From positions 1 through 64,000 of the IMG/VR virus record IMGVR_UViG_3300032315_000979: a stretch of DNA of 64,000 nucleotides. One strand, written 5' to 3'. The position numbers and the translations under genes are program-made. This document shows positions 1 to 19,102 of this stretch, in pieces. The notes beneath the pieces were generated by a model, which saw nothing but the letters and a program-made list of their open reading frames with translations, searched no databases and had not been told where the DNA came from. The DNA is from a virus. The stretch's first letter is position 1, and the number at the start of each line of letters is the position of its first letter.

Positions 1-277
1 CACCAAGAAGGATCAGAAAATTTTGTCAAATTGTTTACAGATTACACTAAAGGAGTTTTGATCAATGTCTAAAACAAAATATTGGCTTTGGATTGTTTGG
101 ATATGTATTGTACTTGGGATAACATCAATAATTGCATTACCTATTATTATTATTACACTTCCAATCATTTTGATTCTCATGATAGCTGCAGTTATCGTTT
201 AACTTTCTAAAATAGAAAATGTGTGATATGATAGATGAATGTAATTTAGCGGGCTACTAGCCAGATAAGGATTTGAA

Positions 278-628
278 ATGAAAGATGAATTAAATATTAA
301 TGATGAGTTGTACACCGATATTGCTTTGCAAATGCTTTCTGCATATATAAATGGAGATAAAGAAGTAACATCAGAATTAATAAACGGTTATGCATTATCT
401 AATGATGATGACCCGACATTTATGCCTGGATTGATATTTGCATCAATGATGCATATGGCAATACTATTGTCTGCGATTGCAGATAGTACAAATATTTCCA
501 CTGAAGAAGCATTAACGCATTACGCAAGTGTTTACAACCTTCAATTCAGAGAACAAATGGCTAAAATCCCTGCATTACATCAAGATATTGCAAAAGAAAT
601 GTATAAGAAGATCGCTCAAGGCGAATAA
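278..628 (+). CDS. hypothetical protein
   Basis: 116-aa ORF with AAGGA RBS; no recognisable motif. Confidence 0.6.
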   Translation: MKDELNINDELYTDIALQMLSAYINGDKEVTSELINGYALSNDDDPTFMPGLIFASMMHMAILLSAIADSTNISTEEALTHYASVYNLQFREQMAKIPALHQDIAKEMYKKIAQGE

Positions 629-774
629 TTTTTATTGCATTTAATGAGGATGGAGATTACTTTATAAGATAAAAAATCTGTAAAGCGAGTGAGCAAATTT
701 GTAGATTGCCCTCGTTTTGCATCTAAAGCTATGCTAATGCGAACTAATCGCAAAACCTAAACTATGGAGGCAAA

Positions 775-1311
775 ATGAAGACAAAAAGTTCTTTAATAAG
801 TGTAATTATAAGTATGTATATAGTAATCGTGGGCTCAATAGCTTACGCTTCTAGTGGTGATATGAGTATTGTTAATACAAACTCATATTCAGTGGTTATT
901 GATTTAGTTGAACTTAATACTAAGCCATTGGCTATTGATAGACCTGAGTGGTTGGATCATAGAGTACCTGATGATAAAAATAAGCGTTGCCCTCAGCATC
1001 ACGCTAAATTTAGAGAGTATGGATTACCTGTACAAGTATTTTCATATATTGCTTGGAGAGAAAGTGGTTGTAATCCAAAAGCAATAAATGCAAAATTTGA
1101 TTCAAATGGAAAGGTTATTTGGACATTGAATAAGAATGGTTCTATTGACAGAGGATTAGTCCAAATTAATAGTTCATGGAAAACAGTAACTAAAAATGTT
1201 TGCGGTACAGATTTGGATGGTCTATTAGAATTAGATTGCAATTTGAGTGTTGCAAAATATATCATGGACAATTCAAAAGGCAAGCTAATGAATTGGAAGA
1301 TTTCAAACTAA
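775..1311 (+). CDS. lytic transglycosylase (SLT/lysozyme-like) with N-terminal signal/anchor
   Basis: Motifs IAWRESGCNPKAIN (catalytic Glu) and DRGLVQIN; hydrophobic N-terminus; GGAGG RBS. Confidence 0.8.
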   Translation: MKTKSSLISVIISMYIVIVGSIAYASSGDMSIVNTNSYSVVIDLVELNTKPLAIDRPEWLDHRVPDDKNKRCPQHHAKFREYGLPVQVFSYIAWRESGCNPKAINAKFDSNGKVIWTLNKNGSIDRGLVQINSSWKTVTKNVCGTDLDGLLELDCNLSVAKYIMDNSKGKLMNWKISN

Positions 1312-1410
1312 AAGATTTTGGTATTAGAAACAGAATAGTAATTCTAGTGGGAACGGTTTTACTATTCTGGTATAGCCTTTGTATAAGGTTATATTCTAAT
1401 ACCAATTTAT

Positions 1411-1484
1411 GTATCCGTAGCTCAATTGGATAGAGCAACAGACTTCTAATCTGTAGGTTATAGGTTCAATTCCTATCGGATACG
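1411..1484 (+). tRNA. tRNA-Arg(TCT)
   Basis: Cloverleaf: acceptor GTATCCG/CGGATAC, anticodon arm ACAGA-CTTCTAA-TCTGT, T-loop TTCAATT; CCA not encoded. Confidence 0.92.
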
Positions 1485-1486
1485 CT

Positions 1487-1622
1487 AAGACATAGGCTAA
1501 GCCCAACCTTTCGGGTTAAGAAAAATATGCATTTGCTCATTTGGGGTATGAATGGGAAATGTCAAATATGGAGTTTTTAGTTTCATTGGTACTTCATAAA
1601 TGTTTTTTGCCTATGTCTTTTT
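1487..1622 (+). ncRNA. candidate structured RNA downstream of tRNA-Arg
   Basis: 11-bp closing stem AAGACATAGGC (1487-1497)/GCCTATGTCTT (1609-1619) enclosing several internal hairpins; no ORF. Confidence 0.4.
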
Positions 1623-1656
1623 CTATATATAAACACAAATTAGGAGCTACATAAAC

Positions 1657-2043
1657 ATGAAATACATATTAATTAAAGAAAATAGTGAAATAGAAATGAT
1701 TTTCACAAATAAAAAAATGACACTTGAAGAACTACAAAAACATGTTGACGGTTATATTCAATGGATTACGATTGATCCAAAGAATAACACTGGTTATTGG
1801 CTGAATGAGGAAGGCAAATTTAATAAGGGAACAAATGAACTTGCTACTAAATGGTGGTATTGGAATATTCTTAAGGAAAGAGACAGCCTAAAAGGATTTA
1901 ATGATTTCATTTCAGGCGATGTTATTTATACAAAAATGGATGATGAAAGGGAGCAATGTTCACTAACTGAAAACGATATTCTTGATTTTGAAGCATTTGT
2001 AGTTGCATTTAAAGTATTGACACAGAAAGATGAGAATAAATAA
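1657..2043 (+). CDS. DUF3846-like phage protein
   Basis: TLEELQKHVDGYIQ...NEEGK...NELAT...GDV pattern. Confidence 0.65.
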   Translation: MKYILIKENSEIEMIFTNKKMTLEELQKHVDGYIQWITIDPKNNTGYWLNEEGKFNKGTNELATKWWYWNILKERDSLKGFNDFISGDVIYTKMDDEREQCSLTENDILDFEAFVVAFKVLTQKDENK

Positions 2044-3051
2044 ATGACAGATAGCAATGAATATGCAATTCTTTTTTATAAAGAAGAGAAGGTGGTAGGT
2101 GTTAGTTCAATAACATCAACATTAGATGAAGTGAGAGGTGTTACAAACCTTATGGCAAATAGTGAAGGTGACTATTTACCAAATAGCGGGGATTACAATT
2201 TAGTTGGGTTTATGAAAGCACATGATATCAATGTGCTTTTACCTAAAGTAATAGAAGAATACGATCAACAAAACAAAGAAGGAAAATAAAATGCCATTAA
2301 ATTACGATATATCAGATATTGCAATGTACAAAGATAATTATGACGAAGCGTATACAGAATATACCCAGTTTGGTGATACTTATAAGGATGTAAAACCATT
2401 CCTTAAAGGTTTGATTTTTGCTGGTGGTATGGTTGCGCTTGGTTCAATTACTTACAAAAATGTAGGTGAATGGTATGCAAGATTGAAATTGTGTGAAGAA
2501 ATGTATAAGACTTTTCTTACAACTCAGTATGATGAAAAGGTAGAGAGCTATGTAGATAAGCCATTGGAAGCAAAAGAATTGGTTAAGTATATTGGTTTGC
2601 ATACAAATCACTCAACCATTACAAGAGGTCAATGGGTTAAGAATGTAAAGCGTAATCAAAATGTTTCTCTTACTCATGCACAAATGCAGTATCGTTTAAA
2701 GAAACTAGAAGAACAATTTGAAAAGGAAGTGTTCGCATGATTAAACCAAGTCAAATAAATATGTATCCAAGAGTATCCGATTGGTATGAAACTAATGTTA
2801 TTGTACACCGAGAAAACTCGGTGTTTGATAAATGGTATATAGAAGTTGTTTATTTTGAAGCAGATGCAGAATACACTTATGGTTCAGATAAAAAACACAT
2901 CATGGCTGGTGGATATCAAAGAGTTGAAATTACTGATAAACTAACTGGTAATTTTTGGGAAGATGCATTTCTTGGTGAAACTGCTCAACCTGACGCTAAT
3001 AGATGGGCTAATGATATTGTTACAAAAATTAAATATGGAAAGGTTAAGTGA
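2044..3051 (+). CDS. three tightly coupled hypothetical genes (2044-2289, 2291-2740, 2737-3051)
   Basis: Abutting or overlapping start-stop junctions with RBSs. Confidence 0.65.
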
Positions 3052-3440
3052 TGGTACTTGTAAATTTAGAAACAGATTATGATGTATTTAACTATGTTAA
3101 GCAACATCTTTTGAATCAGAATGAAAAATCAGTAGACCCTTGGTCATTATCATGTTATTATCGTGCGCAAAAAGAAGACGGTAAAGTATTGATGTGCGCT
3201 GTTGGTTGTCTAATAGATGATAATTACTATTCAGATGAATTTGAAAATAGTTCACCAGGTGATCTAAGAGTTAAGCGAGCAATTGAAAGTTCAATTACCA
3301 ATTGGAATTACAATGTAAGTTTACTTAGTGAATTGCAAAATATTCATGATGAGTATGAACCTGATCAATGGTCTTTAAAATTAGAATACCTTGAAAGTTA
3401 TTTTGGGGGAGTAAACAATGAATATATACAGGCAGGTTAA
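3048..3440 (+). CDS. conserved phage hypothetical protein, paralog of 5580-6128
   Basis: Shared YV..LL.Q..KS, C.YR, L.CAVG..I.D..Y, L..LQ.IHD motifs. Confidence 0.7.
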   Translation: MMVLVNLETDYDVFNYVKQHLLNQNEKSVDPWSLSCYYRAQKEDGKVLMCAVGCLIDDNYYSDEFENSSPGDLRVKRAIESSITNWNYNVSLLSELQNIHDEYEPDQWSLKLEYLESYFGGVNNEYIQAG

Positions 3441-3442
3441 TC

Positions 3443-4530
3443 ATGGCATTAATATATAATTACATCCTAGGTTATGATACAACTGACAATACTTGGTTTC
3501 ATAATGTTGAAGCTGAGTCTGATTTTATGGATGGTAAAACAGTATTCAATACTAAATATGAAGAGTATATAACTGAGTATCAAGGTGACGGTATCTATCT
3601 TTCAGATGTAGAGAGATTGATTGAATCATTTAATGAGGCAATTGAAACTCTAAATGCTAAAGAATTAGAAGCCGTTCGTCAAAAGATGATTAGATTCAAT
3701 GAAGCATTAGACAATGTAGTAAAGGATAGAGAAGGATGATACACGGAGATATCCATAGAAAAGAACATCATTTTATTGTAATAGCATGGCTTGATAAAGA
3801 TGACAAGATTAACTTTGATTTAGACATGGAGAATGTTGAAGTATTTTATCCAACCCCAGTTTTTAATATGGGTACTGGTGAATGGGTAAAATTAGATAAC
3901 GAGGAGATCATGGCAATAGATACAAGAATGTTACAACTACTACAAGAAAGATTGAGTATTAATAATGGCAACTAAAAAGACTGCAGTAAAGCTAGACAAA
4001 AAGACAGAGCAAGAACAATTGATTCAAGGAGCGATTAATGGAAATTATAGCTTATTGATTCCTTGCCAGGATGCAAAATTTGTTTATGTAAGAAATCCAC
4101 TTACAGGCAAAATTACTCATTTTGAAACTAATAAGCCTGAGTTTGTTTCTTGTATAAAGGAACTAGCTGATCTTGGGTTGAACGATAAGCTGGAGAAAGA
4201 CTTCTATGATTTGGGTGCGCTTAAGGATCAGAGATGGCTTCAGGTATTGGATTTCCTAAGAGTTGAGAATGCATTGGAGTTTATAGCATGACAACAGTAA
4301 AAGAAGCGATCAAGATGCTAAATGATCATTTAGACCAAGATGAAGAAATTTGTATTGCATGGTGGTCTAAAGAATTGTTTGAAGGTGCATTTGATTCAGA
4401 CATAAAAGAAGAAGCTTGGGTAATGGTAGTCAATGAGTTTGATGATATGACTATATATCCTCAAGAGTTAATATATAACCAAATAGTACAAACATTAGAC
4501 GATAACAAAGGTTGGGTTGAAAATGAGTAA
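3443..4530 (+). CDS. four small hypothetical genes (3443-3739, 3736-3975, 3965-4291, 4288-4530)
   Basis: Overlapping start-stop junctions, phage operon pattern. Confidence 0.65.
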
Positions 4531-4665
4531 AATAGACGGAGATAAGTTACGGTCAAAGATAGAAAAGCTTTTGCCTAATTGTTCTTTTGATGAAGATAAT
4601 GAAGGTCAAGTTATTATTTATACAAACCTAAAAGAAACAACAAACGGAAATTACAAGGAGCTAAA

Positions 4666-5292
4666 ATGAATAAGGAAAATCTGCAAAGAGTAATTGATGC
4701 CATCAAATTTGATGGACAAAAGAAATTTAATATGGCTGCCTTTATTGGTAAGTTAAGTGATGATAGAAATGAAGAATATATATTTGAAGATGGTGAGTTA
4801 GCAAGTAAATATAATGTAAGTAGAGTTCTTCGTATTGAAGAAGGTACAAAAATCTTTAATTGTACATCAATGGGTTGTATTGCAGGATTTGCTACAGCAA
4901 TAGCAAATGAATGGAAAGCGCCTAAGTGGTTGACAATTGATGATCATTCAGCTCATCTTCAAGGTTTTGAAAGCACATCAAATGAATTTTTAGGTTTCAC
5001 ATATGAAGAGGGTAGAAATCTTTATTATGGTGATGGTGCTTCTATTTGGAAATGGTTGATGTATATGGAGTCAGATAAATATTCTGATTTGCGAGTAGAA
5101 GAGTATGGATCATTAGAAGATGCTGAAGAATACGGTATGCAGTGGGATGATTCAGATCTTATGATTGACTTTACAACTATTGATTATCTAACAGCAGTAG
5201 ATGTATTAACAAGAATACTAAATGAAGAAATTTGTTTAGCTGATATGGATGGTGAACCATATTACATTAAGAAAGAAGCGGTAGTTTCATGA
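4666..5292 (+). CDS. hypothetical protein (CIAG motif)
   Basis: 208-aa acidic ORF, C...GCIAGFA motif, AAGGAG RBS. Confidence 0.6.
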   Translation: MNKENLQRVIDAIKFDGQKKFNMAAFIGKLSDDRNEEYIFEDGELASKYNVSRVLRIEEGTKIFNCTSMGCIAGFATAIANEWKAPKWLTIDDHSAHLQGFESTSNEFLGFTYEEGRNLYYGDGASIWKWLMYMESDKYSDLRVEEYGSLEDAEEYGMQWDDSDLMIDFTTIDYLTAVDVLTRILNEEICLADMDGEPYYIKKEAVVS

Positions 5293-5486
5293 AAAATAAA
5301 TACCCAGCCTATTGGAGAAGTATGGTAAAAGATGCACTTGGATGTGATGATGATTATGCTGAAATTCTTTTAGATTTTCAACATACTGTATCTAATGGCA
5401 TAGATTCATCTGAGGCTACAAATGCTGAATTAAGGAAATATTGGAAATCTATCCACAAGATGTATCAAGAAGATAATAAAGCTTAA
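5289..5486 (+). CDS. hypothetical protein
   Basis: ATGA overlap with the upstream gene. Confidence 0.55.
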   Translation: MKNKYPAYWRSMVKDALGCDDDYAEILLDFQHTVSNGIDSSEATNAELRKYWKSIHKMYQEDNKA

Positions 5487-5490
5487 ACTT

Positions 5491-5533
5491 TGTAAAATCC
5501 CCCAGGTAAGTATATCTGGGGGATTTTACATTT
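5491..5533 (+). terminator. stem-loop / probable terminator
   Basis: TGTAAAATCCCCCAG...CTGGGGGATTTTACA perfect inverted repeat after 5486. Confidence 0.6.
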
Positions 5534-5579
5534 AAAAACGAAAATAGAGCCAAATAGAGCTAAATGGAGGCATTTTAGA

Positions 5580-6128
5580 ATGGCTATGCAATTGAGTGAT
5601 TTAGAAAATGATATGCAGGTGATGGATTATGTTGTTTCAAATCTATTGAAGCAGGGTAAGAAATCAGTTGAAAGTTTCATGAATTATGATACTGACGAAT
5701 ATGAGGAGAGTGGAGATTGCTCTTACCGTGGTTTTATAAGAAATGATGACGGTCAGATTATTGATACCCTAAAGTGTGCCGTTGGTCATATCATTAGTGA
5801 TGAGGTTTATGATGAGCAATTGGAATCACAAACTATTGATAATACACATGTGCTTGACGCTGTAAAATTATCTTGTGAAAACTGGGTGGTTTCAGATAAC
5901 TCTTTGGGTATGTTAAAAGTTCTCCAAAGGATTCACGATATGATTGACCCTGAGAAATGGGAAACCTTTTTCACTTATATCAGAAGAGATATTATAGATG
6001 ATATTAGTGGTCATTCAATAATGAGTTCAGAATCAGCTACGCCTTACGCTCAGACATTGACAAGGTTTCAAAAAGATATAAAACTCAATGAACATGTCTT
6101 TGGAAACTATCCTAAGATTGAGCTGTAA
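5580..6128 (+). CDS. conserved phage hypothetical protein, paralog of 3048-3440
   Basis: CSYRG...LKCAVGHII...LQRIHD motifs; GGAGG RBS. Confidence 0.7.
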   Translation: MAMQLSDLENDMQVMDYVVSNLLKQGKKSVESFMNYDTDEYEESGDCSYRGFIRNDDGQIIDTLKCAVGHIISDEVYDEQLESQTIDNTHVLDAVKLSCENWVVSDNSLGMLKVLQRIHDMIDPEKWETFFTYIRRDIIDDISGHSIMSSESATPYAQTLTRFQKDIKLNEHVFGNYPKIEL

Positions 6129-6187
6129 TTATCATTAGGAAAAAGTAATATATCAACAATATTTTTATCATATATAAAAGGGAATAA

Positions 6188-6517
6188 ATGGCATACAGTC
6201 CAGAGTCAAGAAAAGTGAAATACGAAAACAAAAAAGAGCTGATGAAGGTTGATCCTAACTTTCGGACTGAAGCAAATCGTAAGAGACAAGAATCAAGAAA
6301 ACGAAGGATAACTAGTCGTTTAATGAATATTGGCTTTGATGTGACAAAGGTAAATACTGGTGTTTGCTGTTATGTTGAATGTGAGACTAAACTAAGCAGG
6401 TATAACCAGGATTATTGTTGCGCTTTGCATCAGACAAAAGTTATCAAAAATGGCTTGAATCAGATCATTGAATATGATGATGTTCGTGGTTTTGGCTTGA
6501 AGAAACAGGAGTTCTAA
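6188..6517 (+). CDS. basic protein with putative Cys/His Zn finger
   Basis: CCYVECETKLSRYNQDYCCALH. Confidence 0.55.
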   Translation: MAYSPESRKVKYENKKELMKVDPNFRTEANRKRQESRKRRITSRLMNIGFDVTKVNTGVCCYVECETKLSRYNQDYCCALHQTKVIKNGLNQIIEYDDVRGFGLKKQEF

Positions 6518-6877
6518 TGGGTTTTGATGAAGTTAGAGTAATATTAGCAATTATGGGTTTTATTATAATACTAGTAGTAGTAGGGAGTTAAGATGAAGAC
6601 AATATTGGCGTTATTGATCGGCGTATTTGCTGGCATTCAGTTTCATATTCATGTGGTTAGAAGAGCAATTGAAAAGCATGATCAATATGGAACTCAATGG
6701 GAAGAAGAATATAAATGGAATAGAAAAGGACCAGGTGGCAAAAAATGACTAATGTTAAATACAAAGCTGACGCAGTGCATATGGCTCGCATAAATATTGC
6801 GGGAATAAAAGCCCTTCAGGATATAGAAACAGGTACGCTTTATTATGATGTTTGTGATGAGTGTGAGATGTTATTAG

Positions 6878-7307
6878 ATGAGAATGAGATGGGGTATGGA
6901 CATGAATGCCAGTAAGACATTGGAATTGTATGGGAACTTCCCTTTGAATGTTTTAAAAGCTGGGGAGAAAGTTCTGGTTTATTGTAAGGAATGTAATACG
7001 GAATTAGATCTGGATCAGGTCATAGAACACATGACGGTTAATGATGAGAACCCAGGTGGGCATAGTGTTCACTTTACGATTGAGAAAGGATAAGGATATG
7101 AATACGGATCTGTTTCTAAAAATGGTTGGCTCGTACTTCATGATATTTGGCGGGGTATATCTATTGGTTACTATGATAGAACTTATAGAGGATTGCCTCA
7201 GAAGAAAGAGACTGTTGAAGACTCTGAATAGGATTGAATCTAAGGTAGACCAATTACCTGGAGTAGATCAAGATAAGGAAGATGAATGGTGGTTTGCTAA
7301 TAGATAG
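6878..7307 (+). CDS. small Zn-finger-like protein (6878-7093) and membrane protein (ends 7307)
   Basis: CKEC...EH...H in the first; one TM segment in the second; true starts probably downstream of the track starts. Confidence 0.5.
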
Positions 7308-7312
7308 GCTAC

Positions 7313-7356
7313 CCGTATACCTTTGAATAGGATACCGTATACCTAACCGTATACCT
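7313..7356 (+). repeat. three direct repeats CCGTATACCT at the start of a long AT-rich non-coding tract
   Basis: Copies at 7313, 7335 and 7347. Confidence 0.8.
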
Positions 7357-8021
7357 AAATTGTTGTAGTAAACGCTCAATAAAGGTGTAAAATCTATTAA
7401 ATACATAGGTGTTTTATACGAAAACCATACAAAATAAGGTAAATATACCCTATTTCCTTAGGATTTTTATATGCGACATACAATGAGACCCTATATAGCC
7501 CCTTATAAAGGTTCTAGAAAGATAAATATATATATTCCCCAAAATTTATATCATCATCTATGTAAATTATTTAGTGTGATATATCAAGAGGATATTAGTG
7601 AACAATTATATCCAAGAATTTGTAATTGAATTCGGGGGTGAATTAGGTCTGCCTAATGGATCAGGCATTAGCTTGAAATTACAATGATGTAAGACCTCAG
7701 ATAACTAGTTGAATAATAGATGTCCCATAAAGGTATTGGTTTATCTAAAAGTTTAGATAAATCATTACCTATTTTTTTATACGCACTCCATGTAATATTA
7801 CAAGGGCGTATTATTACAATGGTGTGTAATATTACAGGGCAACAAACGGATAAAAAAATGGGTAAAACAATAGATCACTGATCTAATATTTTTCAGGTTA
7901 ATTTTTGGGCAAGGTTGGTTTTCATTGGATTAGACGATAGAATGGTTAACGAAATGAGAGATTAATTTCTCAAATAAATAAATAATCAAATAAACAATTA
8001 AACAAAGAATAGGACAAAACA

Positions 8022-8357
8022 TTGGAACAAGAAATGCAATTTGAATTTATTAACGAAAATGAAATGGAATTCGCTAAGAGAGGGCGTAAATCTAATCTTG
8101 ACGAAAAGTTTGTTAATTCAGTTAAAGAAATGATCAAAAAAAATGATTCGGTTGCGAAAAAGCAATTTGTTATCATTTCAAGTTTGGCAATTCCTTCGGA
8201 TTTGACTGACATTAAGGATATCAAAAACTATAAGGCTAAAGTTGCAGCAATGCTTCGTACATTGGCTAAGAATTTGGGTTATGGTTCAGAAATCCGTTGG
8301 CATAAGGAAACAGTTCCAGCTATTCGTTTTACTTCAGTTAAGGGTAAAACTAAATAA
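8022..8357 (+). CDS. small basic RGRKS-motif protein, paralog 1 (putative DNA-binding)
   Basis: FEFINENEMEFAKRGRKSN shared with 8828-9124 and 9692-9973. Confidence 0.8.
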   Translation: MEQEMQFEFINENEMEFAKRGRKSNLDEKFVNSVKEMIKKNDSVAKKQFVIISSLAIPSDLTDIKDIKNYKAKVAAMLRTLAKNLGYGSEIRWHKETVPAIRFTSVKGKTK

Positions 8358-8385
8358 ATAGCTAAAACTATAGTCTCTCATTTCA

Positions 8386-8421
8386 ATAAGGCTTAGGGTA
8401 AAACCTAAGCCTTATTTTTTT
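8386..8421 (+). terminator. intrinsic terminator
   Basis: AATAAGGCTTAGG-GTAAAA-CCTAAGCCTTATT followed by T-run. Confidence 0.8.
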
Positions 8422-8549
8422 GTCTAAAAATAAGGTTGTCATAAAGGTTCACATAAAGATTTGAATTAGAATTCGGAATTGGATTTGGTCTAATGTAAAG
8501 ATACAGATAAGCATACTCAATTAGATAAAGGTTTCGTGTAATATTACAT

Positions 8550-8585
8550 GGGTGTAATTTTTTGAATAGACCAAAAATTACACCC
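8550..8585. repeat. cassette-boundary hairpin H1
   Basis: GGGTGTAATTTTT-N10-AAAAATTACACCC. Confidence 0.9.
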
Positions 8586-8827
8586 GCCCGCTGTAATATT
8601 ACAGGAAAGCCAGGCAGCTTCTGTAACTTTACAGCCGTGTAACATTAGGGTAGGCAAAAAAAATATCCCCAACAAGCGGGGTTATTCAGACAACGCTGTA
8701 ATCAGTATGCCTACTGTTACAGGGCTGGAATATTATGCCCGCTTGCTGGGGTTCTGTTGCCAAGCGTAATTTTAGACGCTCCGTACTTACCGTCAGACGC
8801 TCAGAGTTGAGTTACTATGGTGTAACT

Positions 8828-9124
8828 TTACTTGCGCTTTTCGGTGCGAACCACTTGCGGTACGCCTGATGACGACCACATGATGGTTACTGTAACATTA
8901 GCCTGCTTGCTAGCAGAACGGATAATAGCACCGTAACGGGCTTTATCAGTCTTTGCTTTGGCAGACTTCATGTCAACCGAAAAGGAAGTCAACTTGAGCG
9001 CTTGCTTTGGTGTAAGTTTACGCAACGCCTCAACAAGTTGAGGCGGGACGGTTGACTTACGACCACGGCTAGTAAACTCAAGTTCGTTTTCACCAATGAA
9101 CTCAAACGAGAAATCGTCAGCCAT
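8828..9124 (-). CDS. small basic RGRKS-motif protein, paralog 2
   Basis: FEFIGENELEFTSRGRKSTVPP...W...GVPQVVR; AAGGA RBS. Confidence 0.85.
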   Translation of the reverse strand: MADDFSFEFIGENELEFTSRGRKSTVPPQLVEALRKLTPKQALKLTSFSVDMKSAKAKTDKARYGAIIRSASKQANVTVTIMWSSSGVPQVVRTEKRK

Positions 9125-9522
9125 TAGTTACATCCTTGTAAGTTTTGGTTGGCAATAACACTATGCCTAGTGTTACCTCGGTGTAATTTTTGGAAGGTAC
9201 ACCACCTACCCATCCCCAACTTTGGTGCGGACACCGTGAGCCTACAAGTCTAAAATTACCGACTTGCCGTACCTCACGGCTGGGGTCAACCGCTAACCAA
9301 AAGTGTAGCCAAACCCAAACCCAAAAACTCAGCATTTCTAATATTACAGAACTTTTTTTCGGGTCTATTTGGGGACATAATCCCCTAAAGTTACATCTAA
9401 TGTTACAGAAGCTTATACCGTAAAGATAAAGGTCTAGAATTACATTCCTGTAAAGTTACAGAGAGCCCAGGCGGTGTTCCGTAATGTTACTAAAAATAGT
9501 GAGAGCTCCTGTAATATTACAA

Positions 9523-9560
9523 CGGGTGTAACTTTTAGTGGAGAGCAAAAGTTACACCCG
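9523..9560. repeat. cassette-boundary hairpin H2
   Basis: CGGGTGTAACTTTT-AGTGGAGAGC-AAAAGTTACACCCG. Confidence 0.9.
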
Positions 9561-9691
9561 CTCGCCTGTAATATTACACGGACTTTGGGCAAAAAAAATT
9601 ACAACCATGTAATTTTACTACTGTGTAATAATAGAGAGCCTGTCTCGCAGGGGTTACGAGACAGGCTACTCTTACGGGCGTGTAACTTTAG

Positions 9692-9973
9692 TTACTTGCG
9701 CACGATCTGCGGCACGCCATCTGGCGACCAGAGAATTTGCACCTTGACCTTCGCCTGCACACTTGCCGAGCGAATGGTTGCGCCGATCCGAGCCTTGTCG
9801 GTCTTGACCGTTGCTGACTTGACATTGACCTTCAAGGCTGACAAGCGAACGCCCTTGCCCTTTGGCATGTCTTTGATCGCCTGCACGAGTGCTGGTGGAA
9901 CATTAGACTTGCGACCTCGTTGGGTGAATTCCATTGAATTTTCGTCAATGAATTCAAATTCAAACTCTGACAT
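9692..9973 (-). CDS. small basic RGRKS-motif protein, paralog 3
   Basis: FEFIDENSMEFTQRGRKSNVPP...WSPDGVPQIVR; AAGGA RBS; upstream TTGCAA-17-TATCGT promoter. Confidence 0.85.
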   Translation of the reverse strand: MSEFEFEFIDENSMEFTQRGRKSNVPPALVQAIKDMPKGKGVRLSALKVNVKSATVKTDKARIGATIRSASVQAKVKVQILWSPDGVPQIVRK

Positions 9974-10334
9974 GGTTTATCCTTAGTGATCTCACCCCGC
10001 AGGGTGTGTCTTGGCGTTATTGCCTTGACATGAATAACGATAAGGCTTAGGGATAAGAATTGCAAGGTAATCAGATCGTAACAATGCCCGCAAACCCAAT
10101 GCCCATATGAGATATATCACCGACATTGTTACAATATGGTTACAACTCTAAAGTTACACGAGAAACTCTAAAATTACATGATCGGGGCTAATGTTACACA
10201 GAGCGGCGAGATCGCCCAGATCGGGGGTCGTAAAGTTACACGAGTGTAAAGTTACATTCTCATAAAGGTGAGATCAGGTAATGTTACATCCATAAAACAT
10301 ACTAAACTAATGATACACACGGGTAATATTACAT

Positions 10335-10372
10335 CTGGTGTAAGTTTTAGTGGAGCGCAAAACTTACACCAG
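10335..10372. repeat. cassette-boundary hairpin H3
   Basis: CTGGTGTAAGTTTT-AGTGGAGCGC-AAAACTTACACCAG. Confidence 0.9.
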
Positions 10373-10438
10373 CCCCCAAGCTCTGTAATTTTACAGCCTG
10401 GTAACTTTACTGGTGTGTAACTTTACTCGTGTGTAACT

Positions 10439-10924
10439 TTACACGAGCCGTTCGCTGTATTCTTGGCTATGCTCTAGAGCCCATGAGAGACCACCCTCTT
10501 TACCATAGACCCAATCGGTCTCCATGTCGGTCTCAATTTCTAAATCGGGCGTAGTGTAGAAATCGTTATAGACAGGCGTATTCTCTATTGCTAAAGTTAC
10601 GGTAGGGTAATTTTCCCTAACCTTGTCAAAGAAATCCCGCACCGCATTATCCCCGATAGATTTCAGCAAGGCTAATTGACAAGCGAAAATGTCGGGCTCT
10701 GTAATTTTAGGCAGGATTAGTTGCCCACCCTTACCCCTACCCGTAGGCAATAAATTACCGTAAATATCGGTAGGGAATACATCTGTCAAAACTTCCTTGA
10801 CTGTAACTTTACGCAGACCAAACCATTTGGCAATATCTGCAGGCGGTACGCCATCATGATACATCTCGCAGATATCATCTACAAGGTCGGCTGTAAGTTT
10901 AGACACTCTCATTTTTGTCTCCAT
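10439..10924 (-). CDS. N-terminal HTH domain protein
   Basis: KLTADLVDDICEMYHDGVPPADIAKWFGLRKVTVKEVL is a typical HTH. Confidence 0.7.
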   Translation of the reverse strand: METKMRVSKLTADLVDDICEMYHDGVPPADIAKWFGLRKVTVKEVLTDVFPTDIYGNLLPTGRGKGGQLILPKITEPDIFACQLALLKSIGDNAVRDFFDKVRENYPTVTLAIENTPVYNDFYTTPDLEIETDMETDWVYGKEGGLSWALEHSQEYSERLV

Positions 10925-11243
10925 GTAATTTTACCCTTGAGCGGGTTTGGTTTGGTTACAGCGTTCAGTAATTTTACAGTAGAGTTTTCACCTTTGGTTA
11001 GTCCTGGCGAAATCTCTTTGTATTCCTTTGGTGTAACTTTAGATAGGCTTTGTAATATTTCTAGTATGTGTCGTAATTTCATAAGCTTATTCTAGCCTAT
11101 TCTCGTGTAATGTTAGAAGTAATTTTAGGCAATTTTTGAGGTATATAAAGGGTAAGTAACATTACTATTACGATAAAACCTGCTCTGTAATATTAGTTTC
11201 ATAAACTTACACTAAACTAATCTTACAAGGGTCTAATGTTACT

Positions 11244-11283
11244 GCGGGCGTAATATTTGGTGAAGCTCAAATATTACGCCCGC
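11244..11283. repeat. cassette-boundary hairpin H4
   Basis: GCGGGCGTAATATTTG-GTGAAGCT-CAAATATTACGCCCGC. Confidence 0.9.
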
Positions 11284-11320
11284 CTGTAATTTTACAGTCC
11301 TGTAATTTTAGACAGAGACA

Positions 11321-11356
11321 AAGAAAAACCCCTGCGGAGGGCGCAGGGGTTTTCTT
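11321..11356 (-). terminator. intrinsic terminator (possibly bidirectional)
   Basis: AAGAAAAACCCCTGCG...CGCAGGGGTTTTCTT. Confidence 0.8.
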
Positions 11357-11370
11357 ACTCGCTTGTAAGT

Positions 11371-11613
11371 TTAGAACTCAGTGAGTATGTCCTCAGGCAA
11401 CTCATCAGTGATATCTCGCTCATCGGCATCGTCAATGTCATCGTCTAACACTTGTGCAAAAATTACACTCATGTCAGGGTCATCGCCATTGTTGTTTTTG
11501 ATAGAACGCAATATTTTACCTAGATGCTCAACGCTCTCGGCTTCATACAGAAAACTATCTGCCCATTCTGCATCGCCTTGCTCAAATTGCCAAGATACTT
11601 CGTAAGTGTTCAT
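11371..11613 (-). CDS. small very acidic protein
   Basis: 80 aa, D/E-rich; AAGGGAG RBS. Confidence 0.75.
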   Translation of the reverse strand: MNTYEVSWQFEQGDAEWADSFLYEAESVEHLGKILRSIKNNNGDDPDMSVIFAQVLDDDIDDADERDITDELPEDILTEF

Positions 11614-11630
11614 GTAATTTTACTCCCTTG

Positions 11631-11855
11631 TTATTTTTGGGTCTCGCCCAAGATTTGTGAAAATGAATGTTCGCTATCTTCAATTTGTGTTGTTGTGTTT
11701 AGGACACCACAAAACTTACACACGGCATGGATTTGGGTAATTGTAAACTTACCATGCTGTACTTCTACGGAATTGCTACCGATGAATGAATACTCATGCG
11801 GTAGGTTATCCCGATAATTTATGCGGTTCCTAATCTTACAAGTGAGATATGACAT
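11631..11855 (-). CDS. small hypothetical protein (C, H, CxxC)
   Basis: GAAGGG RBS, leader hairpin, -10 TACGAT upstream. Confidence 0.65.
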   Translation of the reverse strand: MSYLTCKIRNRINYRDNLPHEYSFIGSNSVEVQHGKFTITQIHAVCKFCGVLNTTTQIEDSEHSFSQILGETQK

Positions 11856-12029
11856 TGTGTAACTTTACCCTTCGGTCTAATGGCTGGCATTATTGCCAAC
11901 ACAAACATCGTAGCAAATTTTCGTGTAATAGTAGAGGTAATTTTAGATTATTTTTTAGTCAAAAAGCGGTAAGTAATTTTACGATCATAAACATATATTA
12001 AACTAAAGTTACAGCTCCCTAATGTTACA

Positions 12030-12069
12030 GCAGGTGTAACTTTTGGAAGAGCGCAAAAGTTACACCTGC
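12030..12069. repeat. cassette-boundary hairpin H5
   Basis: GCAGGTGTAACTTTTG-GAAGAGCG-CAAAAGTTACACCTGC. Confidence 0.9.
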
Positions 12070-12105
12070 CTGTAATTTTACAGCCGTGTAATTTTAGACC
12101 AGGCA

Positions 12106-12141
12106 AAGAAAAAGCCCCCGCTTTTGGCGGGGGCTTTTCTT
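12106..12141 (-). terminator. intrinsic terminator (possibly bidirectional)
   Basis: AAGAAAAAGCCCCCGC...GCGGGGGCTTTTCTT. Confidence 0.8.
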
Positions 12142-12155
12142 ACTTGCTTGTAACT

Positions 12156-12248
12156 TTAGTCTCGCTCAAAGTACCAAGCAAGTGCTACGGGGATAATTAT
12201 CCATGACCAAAGAATTACAACCCCGTAGATGATTTTGATGATGCTCAT
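12156..12248 (-). CDS. 30-aa membrane peptide (not in ORF track)
   Basis: MSIIKIIYGVVILWSWIIIPVALAWYFERD; upstream CAAGGGAGTAAAATTAC identical to that of 11613. Confidence 0.7.
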   Translation of the reverse strand: MSIIKIIYGVVILWSWIIIPVALAWYFERD

Positions 12249-12269
12249 GTAATTTTACTCCCTTGTAAT

Positions 12270-12626
12270 TTATGAATTGGCTAATTCTGCGATTAGTTGG
12301 CGAAATGCGTCAGTTGGCAAAGACAAGTCCTGCCCGACAATGTGCGAAACTTTTTCGCTCATGCGGTCAAGGCTAATCACTAGGTCAAGTGAATTGATTA
12401 ATACGGTGGATACCCAGTCACGATTATCCATAGGCATATCGTCTGCTGTAACTTTACCCTCCAGTAATTTTGCAAGGTTGGTAACGCTATCGGCATAGTC
12501 GCAACCGTCAGTCACATAGTCAAAGTCAATTTCCAGTATGTCAAAAGTTACAGTAGTGAAAATTTCTGTAACGGTGCAAAGGCTCTCATTTAGGTAGAGC
12601 ATTTTCTTTTGGAATTCGGTGGTCAT
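12270..12626 (-). CDS. acidic hypothetical protein
   Basis: GAAGGG RBS, leader hairpin, TGATATGCT extended -10. Confidence 0.75.
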   Translation of the reverse strand: MTTEFQKKMLYLNESLCTVTEIFTTVTFDILEIDFDYVTDGCDYADSVTNLAKLLEGKVTADDMPMDNRDWVSTVLINSLDLVISLDRMSEKVSHIVGQDLSLPTDAFRQLIAELANS

Positions 12627-12830
12627 GTAATTTTACCCTTCGGATTATTGGTCGGCATTATTACCGACACAAACAGCATATCAAATCCTCGTGTAATAAT
12701 AGAGGTAATTTTAGGCTATTTTTGAGCCTATTTTCGGGGTTGGTAAGATTAGATTTCGTAAAGTTACAAGCTTCTAAAGTTACAAGTAGAAATATGTACT
12801 CCACATAAAGGTAGAGTGTCTAATATTACA

Positions 12831-12870
12831 GCAGGTGTAAGTTTAGCATAGCGCCTAAACTTACACCTGC
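12831..12870. repeat. cassette-boundary hairpin H6
   Basis: GCAGGTGTAAGTTTAG-CATAGCGC-CTAAACTTACACCTGC. Confidence 0.9.
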
Positions 12871-13084
12871 CTGACTGCCTCATAAAGATTTACTAAACTA
12901 ATATTACAGCACAGTAACATACACAGTGGTGTAATGTTACACGGTATACCATGTATGCCCATGTAATATTAGAGTGAATAATTATGCAAGGTAATGCATA
13001 ACTAATTAGTTGCGCCTGGTCTTACATGGTGGTAGTATTTGGTTGTTGGGCAATTCCGCTCAACCAGTAATGAAAGGTAGTCCA

Positions 13085-13540
13085 ATGGCTACAAGTAAGG
13101 CGAAAGCCAAAGTGTCGGTGAAAGTTGCAGTGTCGGCTACTGCAAATAAGGTAGACAAAGCCCGTACCACTAATGCCCGCAAAGGCGTAAAGCAACACTA
13201 TTCCGATAGCAAAGCCGTTGCGTTCTGGCAACTCTTAGCGTTGGTAGTCAAGTCACCACTAATCGCAAAGGACTTGCGTGTTGCAACTAAGAACAACGCT
13301 CAAGCCCGTAGGCAATGGTGCATAGACAATGGTGCAGTAGTGGTATCTCGTGCAGATGTCACACACAAGGTACAAGGCGATAGACCAGACAATGCAGTGA
13401 GGGCAAGACTTATCTCACTTGCCAAAGTAGACGCAAGCGCAAAGCGTGTCGGCTATATCCGTGTGCTAGACGCATACACTGCAAGTCGTAATCCAAAGCA
13501 TGCAGACATAGACAAGGTATATCTATATCGCATTGCGTAA
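13085..13540 (+). CDS. highly basic protein, paralog A of 13949-14428
   Basis: ATG 13085 after GAAAGG RBS; DLRVA.KNNA.ARR.WC, RPDN.VRAR, GY.RVLDAYTA, KVY.YRIA shared. Confidence 0.85.
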   Translation: MATSKAKAKVSVKVAVSATANKVDKARTTNARKGVKQHYSDSKAVAFWQLLALVVKSPLIAKDLRVATKNNAQARRQWCIDNGAVVVSRADVTHKVQGDRPDNAVRARLISLAKVDASAKRVGYIRVLDAYTASRNPKHADIDKVYLYRIA

Positions 13541-13562
13541 CGCTTAGGCGTTGCAATAAAGA

Positions 13563-13592
13563 TACGGGGCATAGATGCCCCGTATTTTTTTT
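13563..13592 (+). terminator. intrinsic terminator
   Basis: TACGGGGCAT-AG-ATGCCCCGTA + T8. Confidence 0.85.
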
Positions 13593-13948
13593 GTATGCGT
13601 TGTTGCGTAAACACAACACTGATTACTTGTTGCATAAAGACAACAAGTGCCCATGTAATATTACATCATATACTAAATATGGTACTCGTTGCATGTATGC
13701 AACGGCGGGTGCGTCTTCTACGCTAGCTGGGAAGCTCCACCCGCCCAACCATGCTAAAAACATTCAAACCCCTCGCATGGTTGGGTTGGTGCAAGCCAGC
13801 TCAGGGCGGGGGGTCGCCCTGAGCCGAACCTGAACGGGGTTCGCATAAACGCTTTCATAAAGAGACACACACACTAAAAATGAGACCAACTCGCCGTAAG
13901 GTTGGCTGGGTGTTTGGGGGGGGTTGCCCCCCCCCCGAACCTATCGGA

Positions 13949-14428
13949 TCAAGCGATCCGATAGACATACACCTTTTGGCTGTCGGGGTGTGTCGGGTTT
14001 TTCTTGGCGGTGTAAGCGTCAAGCACTCGGACATATCCAACCTTTTTGGCGTTCGGGATTACCGAGCGTAGGGAATGGATCCGAGCCCGAACGGAATTGT
14101 CAGGTCGCTCGGCTGGCGTAGCCTGCCCAGCCTTCACGCCGTCAATTTTCTGAACGGCGAGCCAATCAACCTTCACAGCCTTATTCATGACACACCATGA
14201 ACGGCGAGCGCTGGCGTTATTTTTGCTGGCGACCCGTAGATCCTTGTCAATGATTTTTTGCCCTGAAACGCTGGCGAGCAAACCGATCAACAATTCCGCA
14301 GGCTTATCTGTGTAGAATTGCTTGACCCCTGCCGTAGCGTTCTTGGTGTTTTTTGCCGTGATCTTGGTGATCTCGGTTTTTGCCGAGACCGTAGCCTTGA
14401 CACTAGCCTTCACTTTTTTCGTTGCCAT
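13949..14428 (-). CDS. highly basic protein, paralog B of 13085-13540
   Basis: Same motifs; GAAGGGG RBS; convergent with paralog A. Confidence 0.85.
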   Translation of the reverse strand: MATKKVKASVKATVSAKTEITKITAKNTKNATAGVKQFYTDKPAELLIGLLASVSGQKIIDKDLRVASKNNASARRSWCVMNKAVKVDWLAVQKIDGVKAGQATPAERPDNSVRARIHSLRSVIPNAKKVGYVRVLDAYTAKKNPTHPDSQKVYVYRIA

Positions 14429-14731
14429 TTCTGACCCCTTCTATCTTGGGGGATCCCGTTGATCCCCGCTAATAGAAACAATACTGGAACATTACAGAAA
14501 ATCCAAATCATTAGATCCCCGCAAACCCTTATGGAATAAGGGTTTCATAAAAAGATCAAAAAAAAGATCAAAAAATTGCGGGGAATTGGATCAGATCGGG
14601 CATTGACCCTACCGAACATAGGTTCGCCCGTAGGGAAATAGCATAGCATTACCCTCTTGGATTATATACTCAATTTTTCTAAAAAATGGCGTGGGCGGGA
14701 AATGGGCGGGAGCTGGTTTAAAATGCGGGAG

Positions 14732-14770
14732 AATAGAAAAGAGACCGCTTTGCGGGCGGTCTCTCTTTCT
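14732..14770 (-). terminator. intrinsic terminator
   Basis: GAGACCGC-N7-GCGGTCTC followed by TTTTCT on the - strand. Confidence 0.7.
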
Positions 14771-14774
14771 TCTC

Positions 14775-14886
14775 AGTGTGTTAACATCCTTGCGGATGGT
14801 TACTATAACGGTCCTAAGATAGCGAAATTCGTTCTGCTCTGGTGATAGTGCAGATCACGATTGCCGCTTGACACTTTTAGGGTGCC
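14775..14886. ncRNA. candidate small RNA containing a 23S rRNA H69-H70 segment
   Basis: 14799-14830 matches GTAACTATAACGGTCCTAAGGTAGCGAAATTC at 30/32; bracketed by a - strand TGATATAAT and a terminator. Confidence 0.6.
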
Positions 14887-14898
14887 ATAAGTATTATA

Positions 14899-15075
14899 TC
14901 ACTTCTTAGAGTTACGGTAAAATCCACTGCCTTTGAGTTCTATCATCGGCGGGGAATAGATTTGTTTTAGCGTAGCGTTGCACTCGGGGCAAACATCTAT
15001 CTTCCTATCTTCCAGAATGGATCTCATCTCAGTGTGGGTGTGTCCATTAGAACATTTGTAGTCATACTGTGGCAT
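14899..15075 (-). CDS. FmdB-family zinc-ribbon protein (not in ORF track)
   Basis: MPQYDYKCSNGH...CPEC...LKGSGFY. Confidence 0.8.
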   Translation of the reverse strand: MPQYDYKCSNGHTHTEMRSILEDRKIDVCPECNATLKQIYSPPMIELKGSGFYRNSKK

Positions 15076-15128
15076 AGCTTATATATTATACACGGATGTG
15101 TATCCTTGTATACATGGTACAATAGGTT

Positions 15129-15542
15129 ATGTACGAATATCGTGTGAAGAAGGTTTTGAAGATTGTTGACGGAGATACCATTGATGTGGACATTGATTTG
15201 GGGTTTGACATCTCCTATACGCAAAGAGTTAGACTGGCGGGAATTGATACCCCTGAATCTCGCACAAAAGACGCACGAGAGAAGGCTTTGGGGCTTGAGG
15301 TAAAAGACAGACTCAAGAAAGCCATTGATGCCGCCAAAGATGTAATCATTGTAACCGAAAAGCCAGACAGCACCGAAAAGTACGGGCGCATTCTGGGTTG
15401 GGTATATCTTGACAAATCTTCCAAGTCAATCAACGAACAACTCATTGAAGAAGGTTACGCTTGGGGATACATGGGCGAAACCAAGATCAAAGACTTTGAT
15501 GCTCTGCTTGCAAAGCGAGAATCCTTTTCCAAGAAGAAGTAG
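15129..15542 (+). CDS. thermonuclease (SNase-like)
   Basis: VDGDTIDV, RVRLAGIDTPE, KYGRILG motifs; leaderless. Confidence 0.9.
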   Translation: MYEYRVKKVLKIVDGDTIDVDIDLGFDISYTQRVRLAGIDTPESRTKDAREKALGLEVKDRLKKAIDAAKDVIIVTEKPDSTEKYGRILGWVYLDKSSKSINEQLIEEGYAWGYMGETKIKDFDALLAKRESFSKKK

Positions 15543-18502: not shown

Positions 18503-19102
18503 TTATTCATATCTTATTTTACTTGATAAGAAATACTTTACAATGCCGTAATCTGGATGGGCAATATCTGCAGATACCAAAGTGTAGTCATATAATATAT
18601 TATCAATTCTTCTTCTGTTGTATGCTGAGTGGTACTCAATCAAATAAACATCTGGTTTGATAACCATATTTTCTAGTATTTCAATTTCAGCACCTTCGGT
18701 ATCAATTTTCACAATGTCTGCTTTTGGCAGTAAACTTGCTGCTACAACAGAAACATTTTCGCCCTCTTCAACTTGCTCAGCGCCATGCTGGAAACTGCAC
18801 TCACCAACATTGTGAGCTCCATAATACATTCTTCTTTGTTCTGTTTTTGAACCTATTGCAAGGTTCATAACCATGATGTTTTCAAGATCTTTTGTATTTT
18901 TTTTTAAATACTCAAAATTATTTTTAATTGGTTCATATGAATAGATTTTTGAATTATTCCATCTTTTATTAGCCCATAAACAAAATCCACCAACATTACC
19001 GCCGATATCCAGAATCACTGGATTTTCTTTTTCATACGGAATGTCATATTCCCCTTTAAATATTTTTTCAATATGGGGAGTCATGTTTTTTGGAACTTGC
19101 AT
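18503..19102 (-). CDS. FkbM-family methyltransferase
   Basis: ILDIGGNVG, YSYEP, VKIDTEGAE. Confidence 0.85.
   Translation of the reverse strand: MQVPKNMTPHIEKIFKGEYDIPYEKENPVILDIGGNVGGFCLWANKRWNNSKIYSYEPIKNNFEYLKKNTKDLENIMVMNLAIGSKTEQRRMYYGAHNVGECSFQHGAEQVEEGENVSVVAASLLPKADIVKIDTEGAEIEILENMVIKPDVYLIEYHSAYNRRRIDNILYDYTLVSADIAHPDYGIVKYFLSSKIRYE

Follow-up and report, generated by a model that had tools for sequence, protein, structure and literature searches.

A dense array of phased palindromes in the spacers of a phage small-gene block, and the protein family predicted to read it

The DNA analysed here, called the window, comprises bases 1-64000 (64,000 nucleotides) of the 108,687-bp IMG/VR virus contig IMGVR_UViG_3300032315_000979, the present genome or G0. 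Between 7792 and 13664 it carries an array of 72 copies of the palindrome STAANNTTAS, laid over a row of small minus-strand genes with a plus-strand RGRKS gene and two basic paralogs (family A2) at its edges. The RGRKS paralogs lie at 8034-8357 (plus strand, at the array edge and opposite to the row), 8828-9124 (minus) and 9692-9973 (minus; the query of alignment A1, with a predicted local distance difference test score, pLDDT, of 80 for its model), and the basic paralogs at 13085-13540 (plus, at the array edge) and 13949-14428 (minus). Three further cassettes, all on the minus strand, are pairs of open reading frames (ORFs). The one at 10439-11082 encodes 161 and 57 residues (10439-10924 and 10909-11082) and holds 7 in-frame copies of the site; that at 11371-11855 encodes an acidic 80-residue and a 74-residue product (11371-11613, 11631-11855) and is replaced in a close relative, G3; and that at 12156-12626 encodes a hydrophobic 30-residue and a 118-residue product (12156-12248, 12270-12626), with a site between Shine-Dalgarno sequence and ATG in both ORFs. 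Ten array ORFs have no match in Pfam or PHROGs.

A first-pass annotation, made by eye, had reported roughly 70 copies of the palindrome where about one was expected, and the count of 72 against 0.7 predicted from the composition of the region bears this out. In the window as a whole there are 85 copies, whereas dinucleotide shuffles yield 5.4 +/- 2.7 (maximum 14). Outside the array, 102.7 kb of genome contain 19 against about 13 expected, and the approximately 100-fold enrichment is restricted to one region. Judged from the flanks, the true repeat unit is 12 bp, T-GTAA-NN-TTAC-A (motif TGTAANNTTACA), and (C/T)GT is mildly preferred on the side upstream of the gene; we denote the unit O, for predicted operator. 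Sixty of the 72 sites are non-coding, at a density of 19.6 per kb of non-coding versus 4.1 per kb of coding sequence. The remaining 12 lie within ORFs, four of them in 10439-10924, where internal copies had already been noticed, and these translate as K-[VIL]-T or T-V-T-L. Footprints of 12 bp, drawn around exact and one-mismatch sites, occupy 945 of 3080 spacer bases (~31%), and each spacer is loaded with 3-11 copies. This clustering, together with the intergenic position of 61 of the 63 sites in the collinear relative G1, gives no support to the earlier suggestion that a continuous polymer coats the entire 6 kb. A literature search with the motif string returned nothing relevant, comparison of the array-region DNA with cultured phages (megablast, blastn) gave no match, and every Rfam match over 7000-15500 fell far under its gathering score.

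Copies of the site recur at short, regular distances. When sites were re-placed at random within their own non-coding segments (2000 trials), pairs exactly 16 bp apart numbered 1.05 on average and 6 at most, against 10 observed, of which fewer are independent events because some of the pairs occupy equivalent positions in paralogous spacer modules. All eight of the 16-bp runs listed in the first-pass annotation are present. Exact 16-bp phase is nonetheless a property of the clade to which the present phage belongs (5-14 pairs per locus in the related loci L031-L041); the dominant close spacing is 17-19 bp in the relatives G1 and G2 and in L068 and L113, and it is mixed in L045 and L047, whose palindromes are of CTAA and TTAA type. 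It is thus the short centre-to-centre distance that is conserved, and the exact 16-bp phasing is not. A secondary peak in spacing occurs at 30-34 bp.

Each of six spacer clusters contains one of the six hairpins discussed below. Cluster 1 (8538-8648) consists of one site, a hairpin (8549-8592), a further site and an O-O pair at 16 bp (8623/8639), and is followed by the terminator of gene 8828-9124 (8667-8681). Cluster 2 (9250-9691), upstream of that same RGRKS gene, holds 10 sites, the hairpin at 9523-9567 and the terminator of gene 9692-9973 (9637-9667), and cluster 3 (10148-10442), upstream of the latter gene, has 11 sites, four of which (10385-10442) follow one another at exactly 16 bp, as well as the hairpin at 10337-10373 and, on the minus strand, two CTTTATG-type elements. 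Cluster 4 (11107-11374) combines 9 sites with the hairpin at 11244-11283 and a minus-strand terminator at 11324-11354. Cluster 5 (11859-12159) has 8 sites, the hairpin at 12030-12069 and, at about 12105-12135 on the minus strand, a GC-rich stem with a T-run that was called a terminator by eye only and is absent from the terminator scan. Cluster 6 (12627-12972) has 11 sites, the hairpin at 12831-12870 and CTTTATG at 12810 and 12887, read on the minus strand.

In the orientation of the genes, a spacer runs from the terminator of the upstream gene through an O-O pair, a perfect hairpin, a single O or a second O-O pair, a hexamer of the form T(T/A)(T/G)A(G/A)T and a (C/G)TTTATG element to more copies of O and finally a 5' leader, in which O often stands between the Shine-Dalgarno sequence and the ATG. 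In G1 and G2 the cassette spacer begins with a terminator and an O, has a second O 17 bp on and, after about 15 nt, one of the hexamers TAGAGT, TAGTAT or TATAGT, followed by 2 nt, another O, 8-9 nt and CTTTATG. These TAnnnT-type hexamers, seen by eye immediately 5' of an operator, are placed as expected if the predicted operators overlap the transcription start site in an actinobacterial host. Each of the six boundary hairpins has a perfect stem of 13-17 bp and, as RNA, a folding energy of -17 to -28 kcal/mol; the arms are themselves degenerate sites, GTAA-nn-TTnn. A copy of the palindrome had been said to precede the arm GTAA of each hairpin by 16-17 bp, and this holds for all six. Among 14 loci we recovered 51 distinct hairpins, all with perfect pairing, whose inner stems are of 34 kinds; the outer base, G[TC]GTAAC / GTTAC[AG]C, is constant in all lineages, and the inner arm copies the half-site of its lineage.

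The CTTTATG element occurs in the window, as plus-strand CATAAAG, at 7726, 8440, 8452, 10261, 12804, 12881 and 13633, in each case on the minus strand, and CTTTATG(G) is found as well in G1, G2, L031-L047 and L138. A CTTTATG that follows O after 8-10 nt was counted in nine diverged loci, 59 times in the sense orientation versus 4 times in antisense (8-20 versus 0-5 per locus), and in G1 an O-N9-CTTTATG unit is present in every spacer but one, about one or two per cassette. The next O follows CTTTATG within 3-8 nt, which accounts for the 30-34-bp peak. Because the element stays invariant in lineages whose palindromes differ, palindrome and element are presumably read by different factors. CTTTATG fits no TAnnnT rule for a -10 box, no -10 hexamer stands at a fixed distance from it, and a sigma-70 consensus scan did not rise above chance; promoters of sigma-70 or TAnnnT type could not be set in any consistent register with the element. 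We also considered CTTTATG as a leaderless start and rejected this by eye, the ORFs from such ATGs being only 3-16 codons long. As a separate observation, AAATCC or TAATC-like units of 5-6 bp form a run after CTTTATG at window 8460-8500 (minus strand), at 90345-90420 in G1 and at 18551-18625 in G2, and in G1 and G2 the AAATCC-type run leads to a conserved stretch (ATCCAAATCCTAACATCC ... CTTTATGGCGGGCAATAGGCTTAC).

IMG/VR relatives were found by a DNA pattern search and by a protein-guided search, and 20 or more related contigs show the layout at the corresponding syntenic position. G1 (105.7 kb) is collinear with the present genome and its proteins are 27-83% identical; the syntenic arrays of G1, G2 and G3 contain 63, 15 and 66 copies, respectively. 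Sites are conserved although the spacer DNA around them is unalignable between lineages, and the palindrome itself differs by lineage. Most loci have the GTAA type (TGTAAnnTTACA), L045 and L046 have TCTAACGTTAGA (36 and 29 copies; CTAA-CG-TTAG in L045) and L047 has TTAACGTTAA (TTAA-CG-TTAA; 23 copies). A distant RGRKS-encoding phage, L138 (IMGVR_UViG_3300023116_000035, 1241-8222), lacks palindromes and instead carries strand-biased CTAAC half-sites (102 versus 41), 17 of them as direct CTAACCTAAC (CTAAC-CTAAC) doublets, along with a strand-biased CTTTATG (14 versus 3). At the scale of single cassettes, G0 and the 90-100% identical G3 differ by replacement or deletion at window 10800-11100 and 11400-11900, with breakpoints that coincide with the spacer modules, and these modules are paralogous to one another. 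Of the related contigs, half (L031, L035, L036, L038, L039, L041, L045, L046 and L047) stop no more than 6 kb from the RGRKS genes, which reflects either assembly breaks in the repetitive DNA or else genuine genome termini or the boundaries of a repeat. Beyond the window, three operators 14 bp apart (G000:C1:97412-97449) lie in a 400-bp intergenic gap that precedes a small plus-strand gene block starting at 97711, and they are kept in G1, at 4519 and 4545.

Which protein might read the sites was approached from both directions. The protein-guided search with RGRKS gave 18 loci, all 18 of which carry arrays. The reverse test, which used DNA only (phased GTAANNTTAC pairs), gave 78 loci; all 16 of those with 14 or more copies carry RGRKS and/or basic (A2) genes, and RGRKS occurs in none of the approximately 60 chance loci. 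RGRKS, with 2-3 copies per array, is the only family always present, as no basic gene lies within 6 kb of the arrays in L045-L047. Of three diverged RGRKS members scanned singly against IMG/VR, two gave no match. The first-pass annotation had named the RGRKS proteins among possible binders, and their constant presence while the half-site switches keeps them in that place. Another of its candidates, the product of 10439-10924, described there as a helix-turn-helix (HTH) protein, is not supported: it has only a sub-threshold DUF433 match and is conserved no further than the nearest relative.

RGRKS proteins are about 95 residues long, with R-G-R nearly invariant over 77 diverged members, and the 128 cluster representatives at 50% identity are nearly all stand-alone proteins of 90-130 residues. 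On sequence grounds this appears to be a novel protein family. A Pfam search of the 77 diverged members yielded nothing useful, sequence searches of the PDB with alignments A1, A2 and A3 gave no significant match (a weak match to an S4 domain has an E value of 0.19), the ESM Atlas returned nothing but unnamed viral clusters for the RGRKS and basic families, and A1 and A2 show no homology to each other. No RGRKS relatives were found in 185,579 prokaryote genomes. The RGR motif may correspond to the (Q/R)GR minor-groove motif of Lsr2 and H-NS; the Lsr2 Pfam model has no match in the genome and, nearly invariant as RGR is, the RGRKS model has no fold match.

The genome itself appears to belong to a lytic-type actinophage distantly related to Streptomyces BE/BK phages. 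Its capsid and portal are 54% and 43-47% identical to those of BE/BK phages (the closest cultured relatives being BE1), it encodes a giant tape measure protein, and two genes of the WhiB family beyond the window (G000:C1:103689-103877, 70 bits, and 77515-77694, 35 bits) point to an actinobacterial host despite a G+C content of 39%. The genome has no match to HTH_3, Lsr2, ParB_N, tyrosine integrase or Sigma70_r4, the sole sigma-factor domain searched, and its probable lytic character follows from these missing matches together with the lack of RGRKS relatives in the prokaryote genomes searched. A cyanophage host was considered and rejected, there being no HIP1 site (GCGATCGC) and both WhiB and actinophage structural genes being present.

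The ends of the contig carry no physical information. A 123-bp 'direct terminal repeat' (DTR) proved to be an assembly overlap, since G3 is collinear across the end junction (window 1-1310 and G000:C1:105471-108687), and the coordinate origin is therefore arbitrary. This removes the basis for the earlier idea that the array protects first-injected DNA, for which synteny with the terminal repeat of BE1 phages is the sole indirect hint. Gene order matches that of the BE1 phage Jay2Jay, and the array is syntenic with its terminal repeat: the equivalent block in Jay2Jay, 20-25 small leftward genes, is a 10,778-bp direct terminal repeat (PMC5764925). In that block (L048, NC_029098.1, 753-11509) we found one TGTCCGG-NN-CGGACA palindrome in nearly all spacers, about 16 in number, adjoining a CCCCGAAGGGG terminator; the palindrome is confined to the 10.8-kb repeat and its edge, the next 18 kb containing only isolated half-site 7-mers. 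No description of these spacer palindromes was found in the literature searched, and alignments A1 and A2 have no homologues among the Jay2Jay ORFs.

We propose, with a confidence that stands at the midpoint between acceptance and doubt, that the palindromes serve as operators at which a dimeric regulator made by the phage, probably RGRKS, co-ordinates the promoters of the cassettes. Dyad symmetry, tandem phasing and restriction to spacers point to a dimeric phage protein, as do the retention of sites amid unalignable spacers and the lineage-specific switch of the half-site alongside a constant phage family. Of the earlier proposal, the dimeric target is supported, and the continuous polymer is not. 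Protein binding, RGRKS as the binder, the sign of the regulation and the promoter positions are all matters that we infer from sequence. The region would consist of moron-like cassettes, each a small gene or gene pair with its own terminator, separated by spacers in which operator units surround a hairpin and a strand-specific CTTTATG. Dimers might bind co-operatively to neighbours 16-19 bp apart on opposite faces of the helix, and also over 30-34 bp on the same face, so that the promoter-proximal DNA of all cassettes would be occupied at once and the block switched co-ordinately. The small size of RGRKS fits sites 16-17 bp apart, and with no Sigma70_r4, HTH_3, Lsr2, ParB_N or integrase match the genome offers no other obvious binder. 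Repression or timing of the cassettes is more likely than activation because the many sites take up varying positions around TAnnnT-like hexamers, and because they also follow terminators and overlie ribosome-binding sites. We offer more tentatively, and as a conjecture on the doubtful side, that RGRKS is a new class of small sequence-specific DNA-binder, marked by its invariant RGR, that assembles a phased 'chromatin' on an early-gene block and whose half-site has been re-tuned several times. If so, specificity would have shifted among G/C/T-TAA, inverted or direct, within one family of large actinophages, and the sets of paralogs would act together with the hairpins and CTTTATG as a single insulated switch that serves many exchangeable cassettes.

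Several results weigh against this proposal. Neither RGRKS nor A2 has a recognisable DNA-binding fold in sequence and model searches, and Foldseek and VIA-align on both models reached Z scores of at most 5.9 (RGRKS) and 4.6 (basic family). The co-occurrence of RGRKS with arrays is partly so by construction, as the genes sit within the arrays. Promoter placement is inconsistent, the order of -10-like hexamer, operator and CTTTATG varying by lineage. A repressor of the lysogeny type is unlikely in view of the missing integrase and the lack of prokaryote RGRKS relatives. The fixed geometry of the O-N9-CTTTATG unit, with its 59 to 4 bias, looks more like a promoter or activator arrangement than like free repressor sites, and it is the main observation that repression leaves unexplained.

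That geometry suggests that the palindrome may be a positive promoter element at the -35 position, O-N9-CTTTATG being the cassette promoter, used by host RNA polymerase with a phage activator according to the logic of MotA boxes in T4 middle promoters. Besides the fixed 8-10 nt spacing and the strand bias, the frequency of about one or two units per G1 cassette would fit, as would the resemblance of the operator's right half and flank, TTACA, to TTGACA. The phage also encodes two WhiB-type factors, and factors of this type act on sigma region 4. We nevertheless regard a promoter element as distinctly improbable: each spacer contains 3-11 palindromes, many without CTTTATG and in both orientations; palindromes also stand after terminators, between Shine-Dalgarno sequence and ATG, and in ORFs; CTTTATG breaks the TAnnnT rule with no -10 hexamer at a set distance; and its invariance while the palindrome changes implies separate readers. 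A structural nucleoprotein domain, with the array in a long terminal repeat that assembly has collapsed, would serve not gene control but end protection, pairing or recombination of the repeats, packaging or stepwise injection, as has been proposed for a repeat-rich region within the terminal repeat of T5. The matching gene order of Jay2Jay, in which the block is a terminal repeat with spacer palindromes, speaks for it, as do the related contigs that end in or beside the array, the ~31% coverage of spacer DNA and the retention of copies even inside ORFs. We think it unlikely even so, given that the supposed DTR is an assembly overlap crossed by G3, that the sites avoid coding sequence and go with spacers, terminators and the strand-specific CTTTATG, a pattern that points to transcription units, and that the three distant sites, which G1 retains, stand before a second block of small genes.

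Explanations that dispense with a phage-encoded binder fare worse. High copy number and density, and array proteins without a classical DNA-binding domain, are what might be seen in a decoy array that titrates a host transcription factor or nucleoid protein, but the half-site switches between closely syntenic lineages in company with divergence of the phage proteins, and the sites keep precise register with phage-specific hairpins and CTTTATG, so that we consider titration very improbable. Equally remote, in our judgement, are repeats without any binder, whether they provide homology for cassette shuffling, as promoter-early stem-loop (PeSL) elements do in T4-type phages and attC sites in integrons, or are selfish mini-repeats. 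The cassettes of G0 and G3 do differ with breakpoints at spacer modules, the modules are paralogous, and the hairpin base loosely resembles integron R boxes; yet the genome lacks a tyrosine recombinase, the cassettes bring their own terminators, the 13-17-bp hairpins are perfect and free of attC-type bulges, and homology shuffling requires no exact 10-12-bp dyad across unalignable spacers.

Among described systems the nearest analogue is found in Cluster O mycobacteriophages, whose 17-bp dyad repeat, TGTTCGGNNNCCGAACA, is a predicted dimer target and of which Corndog has 34 copies (PMC4351075). Both cases concern an integrase-less actinobacteriophage with more than 30 short palindromes, mostly intergenic with some in ORFs, and at higher density where a block of small genes runs leftward. 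The sequences are unrelated (TGTTCGGNNNCCGAACA versus TGTAANNTTACA), however, and the Cluster O repeats are distributed genome-wide at roughly one per gap, unlike the present array with its 3-11 phased copies per spacer in one 6-8-kb block, its hairpin and CTTTATG, its lineage switching and its linked protein family. The array is an analogue of the Cluster O repeats, not a member. Cluster A stoperators are likewise many copies of one regulator site, and the sites are reported to co-evolve with the protein between lineages (PMC6550527, PMC9283540). They are asymmetric, 13-14 bp long, oriented with transcription, genome-wide and bound by a monomeric HTH repressor of temperate phages, whereas the present sites are dyad-symmetric, 72 of 91 fall within 6 kb, and the genome has no HTH_3, Phage_integrase or ParB_N match and no prophage relatives that we could find. 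The phiC31 repressor binds conserved inverted repeats (CIR, ~18) at early promoters, and phiC31 is temperate. CIRs resemble the array in placing multiple copies of one inverted repeat at the early units of a Streptomyces phage; they differ in being far fewer and in belonging to a temperate phage with a repressor of known family.

Repeated modules that bracket small genes are also known. PeSL cassettes bracket small early genes in T4-type phages. In halovirus HF2, intergenic repeats are reported to carry promoters (PMC8707807). Here too the modules bracket small genes, and they coincide with points of cassette exchange; PeSL and HF2 modules are plain promoters without dense sets of palindromic operators. 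As to a partition centromere of the ParB/parS type, the genome gave no ParB_N match (a partition NTPase was not specifically searched) and the array proteins no Pfam or PHROGs match; the array extends over 6 kb of genes, unlike compact centromeres. Integron attC sites are set apart by the recombinase, terminator and hairpin differences given above. Jay2Jay shares the gene order, the small leftward genes and spacers that combine a terminator with a palindrome, and differs in having a single palindrome per spacer, about 16 in total, of unrelated sequence and without RGRKS or A2 homologues.

The array is denser and more structured than these described analogues and belongs to none of their families; with some 20 sites in each kb of spacer, its local palindrome density is the highest known to us. 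Short palindromes in dozens of copies occur in a few actinophage groups, Cluster O among them (PMC4351075). A precise, conserved architecture and natural specificity variants (GTAA, CTAA and TTAA inverted, CTAAC direct) linked to one protein family make function directly testable here, and the comparison with Jay2Jay points to an unnoticed pattern of one palindrome per spacer in cultured Streptomyces BE1 phages, where genetics is possible.

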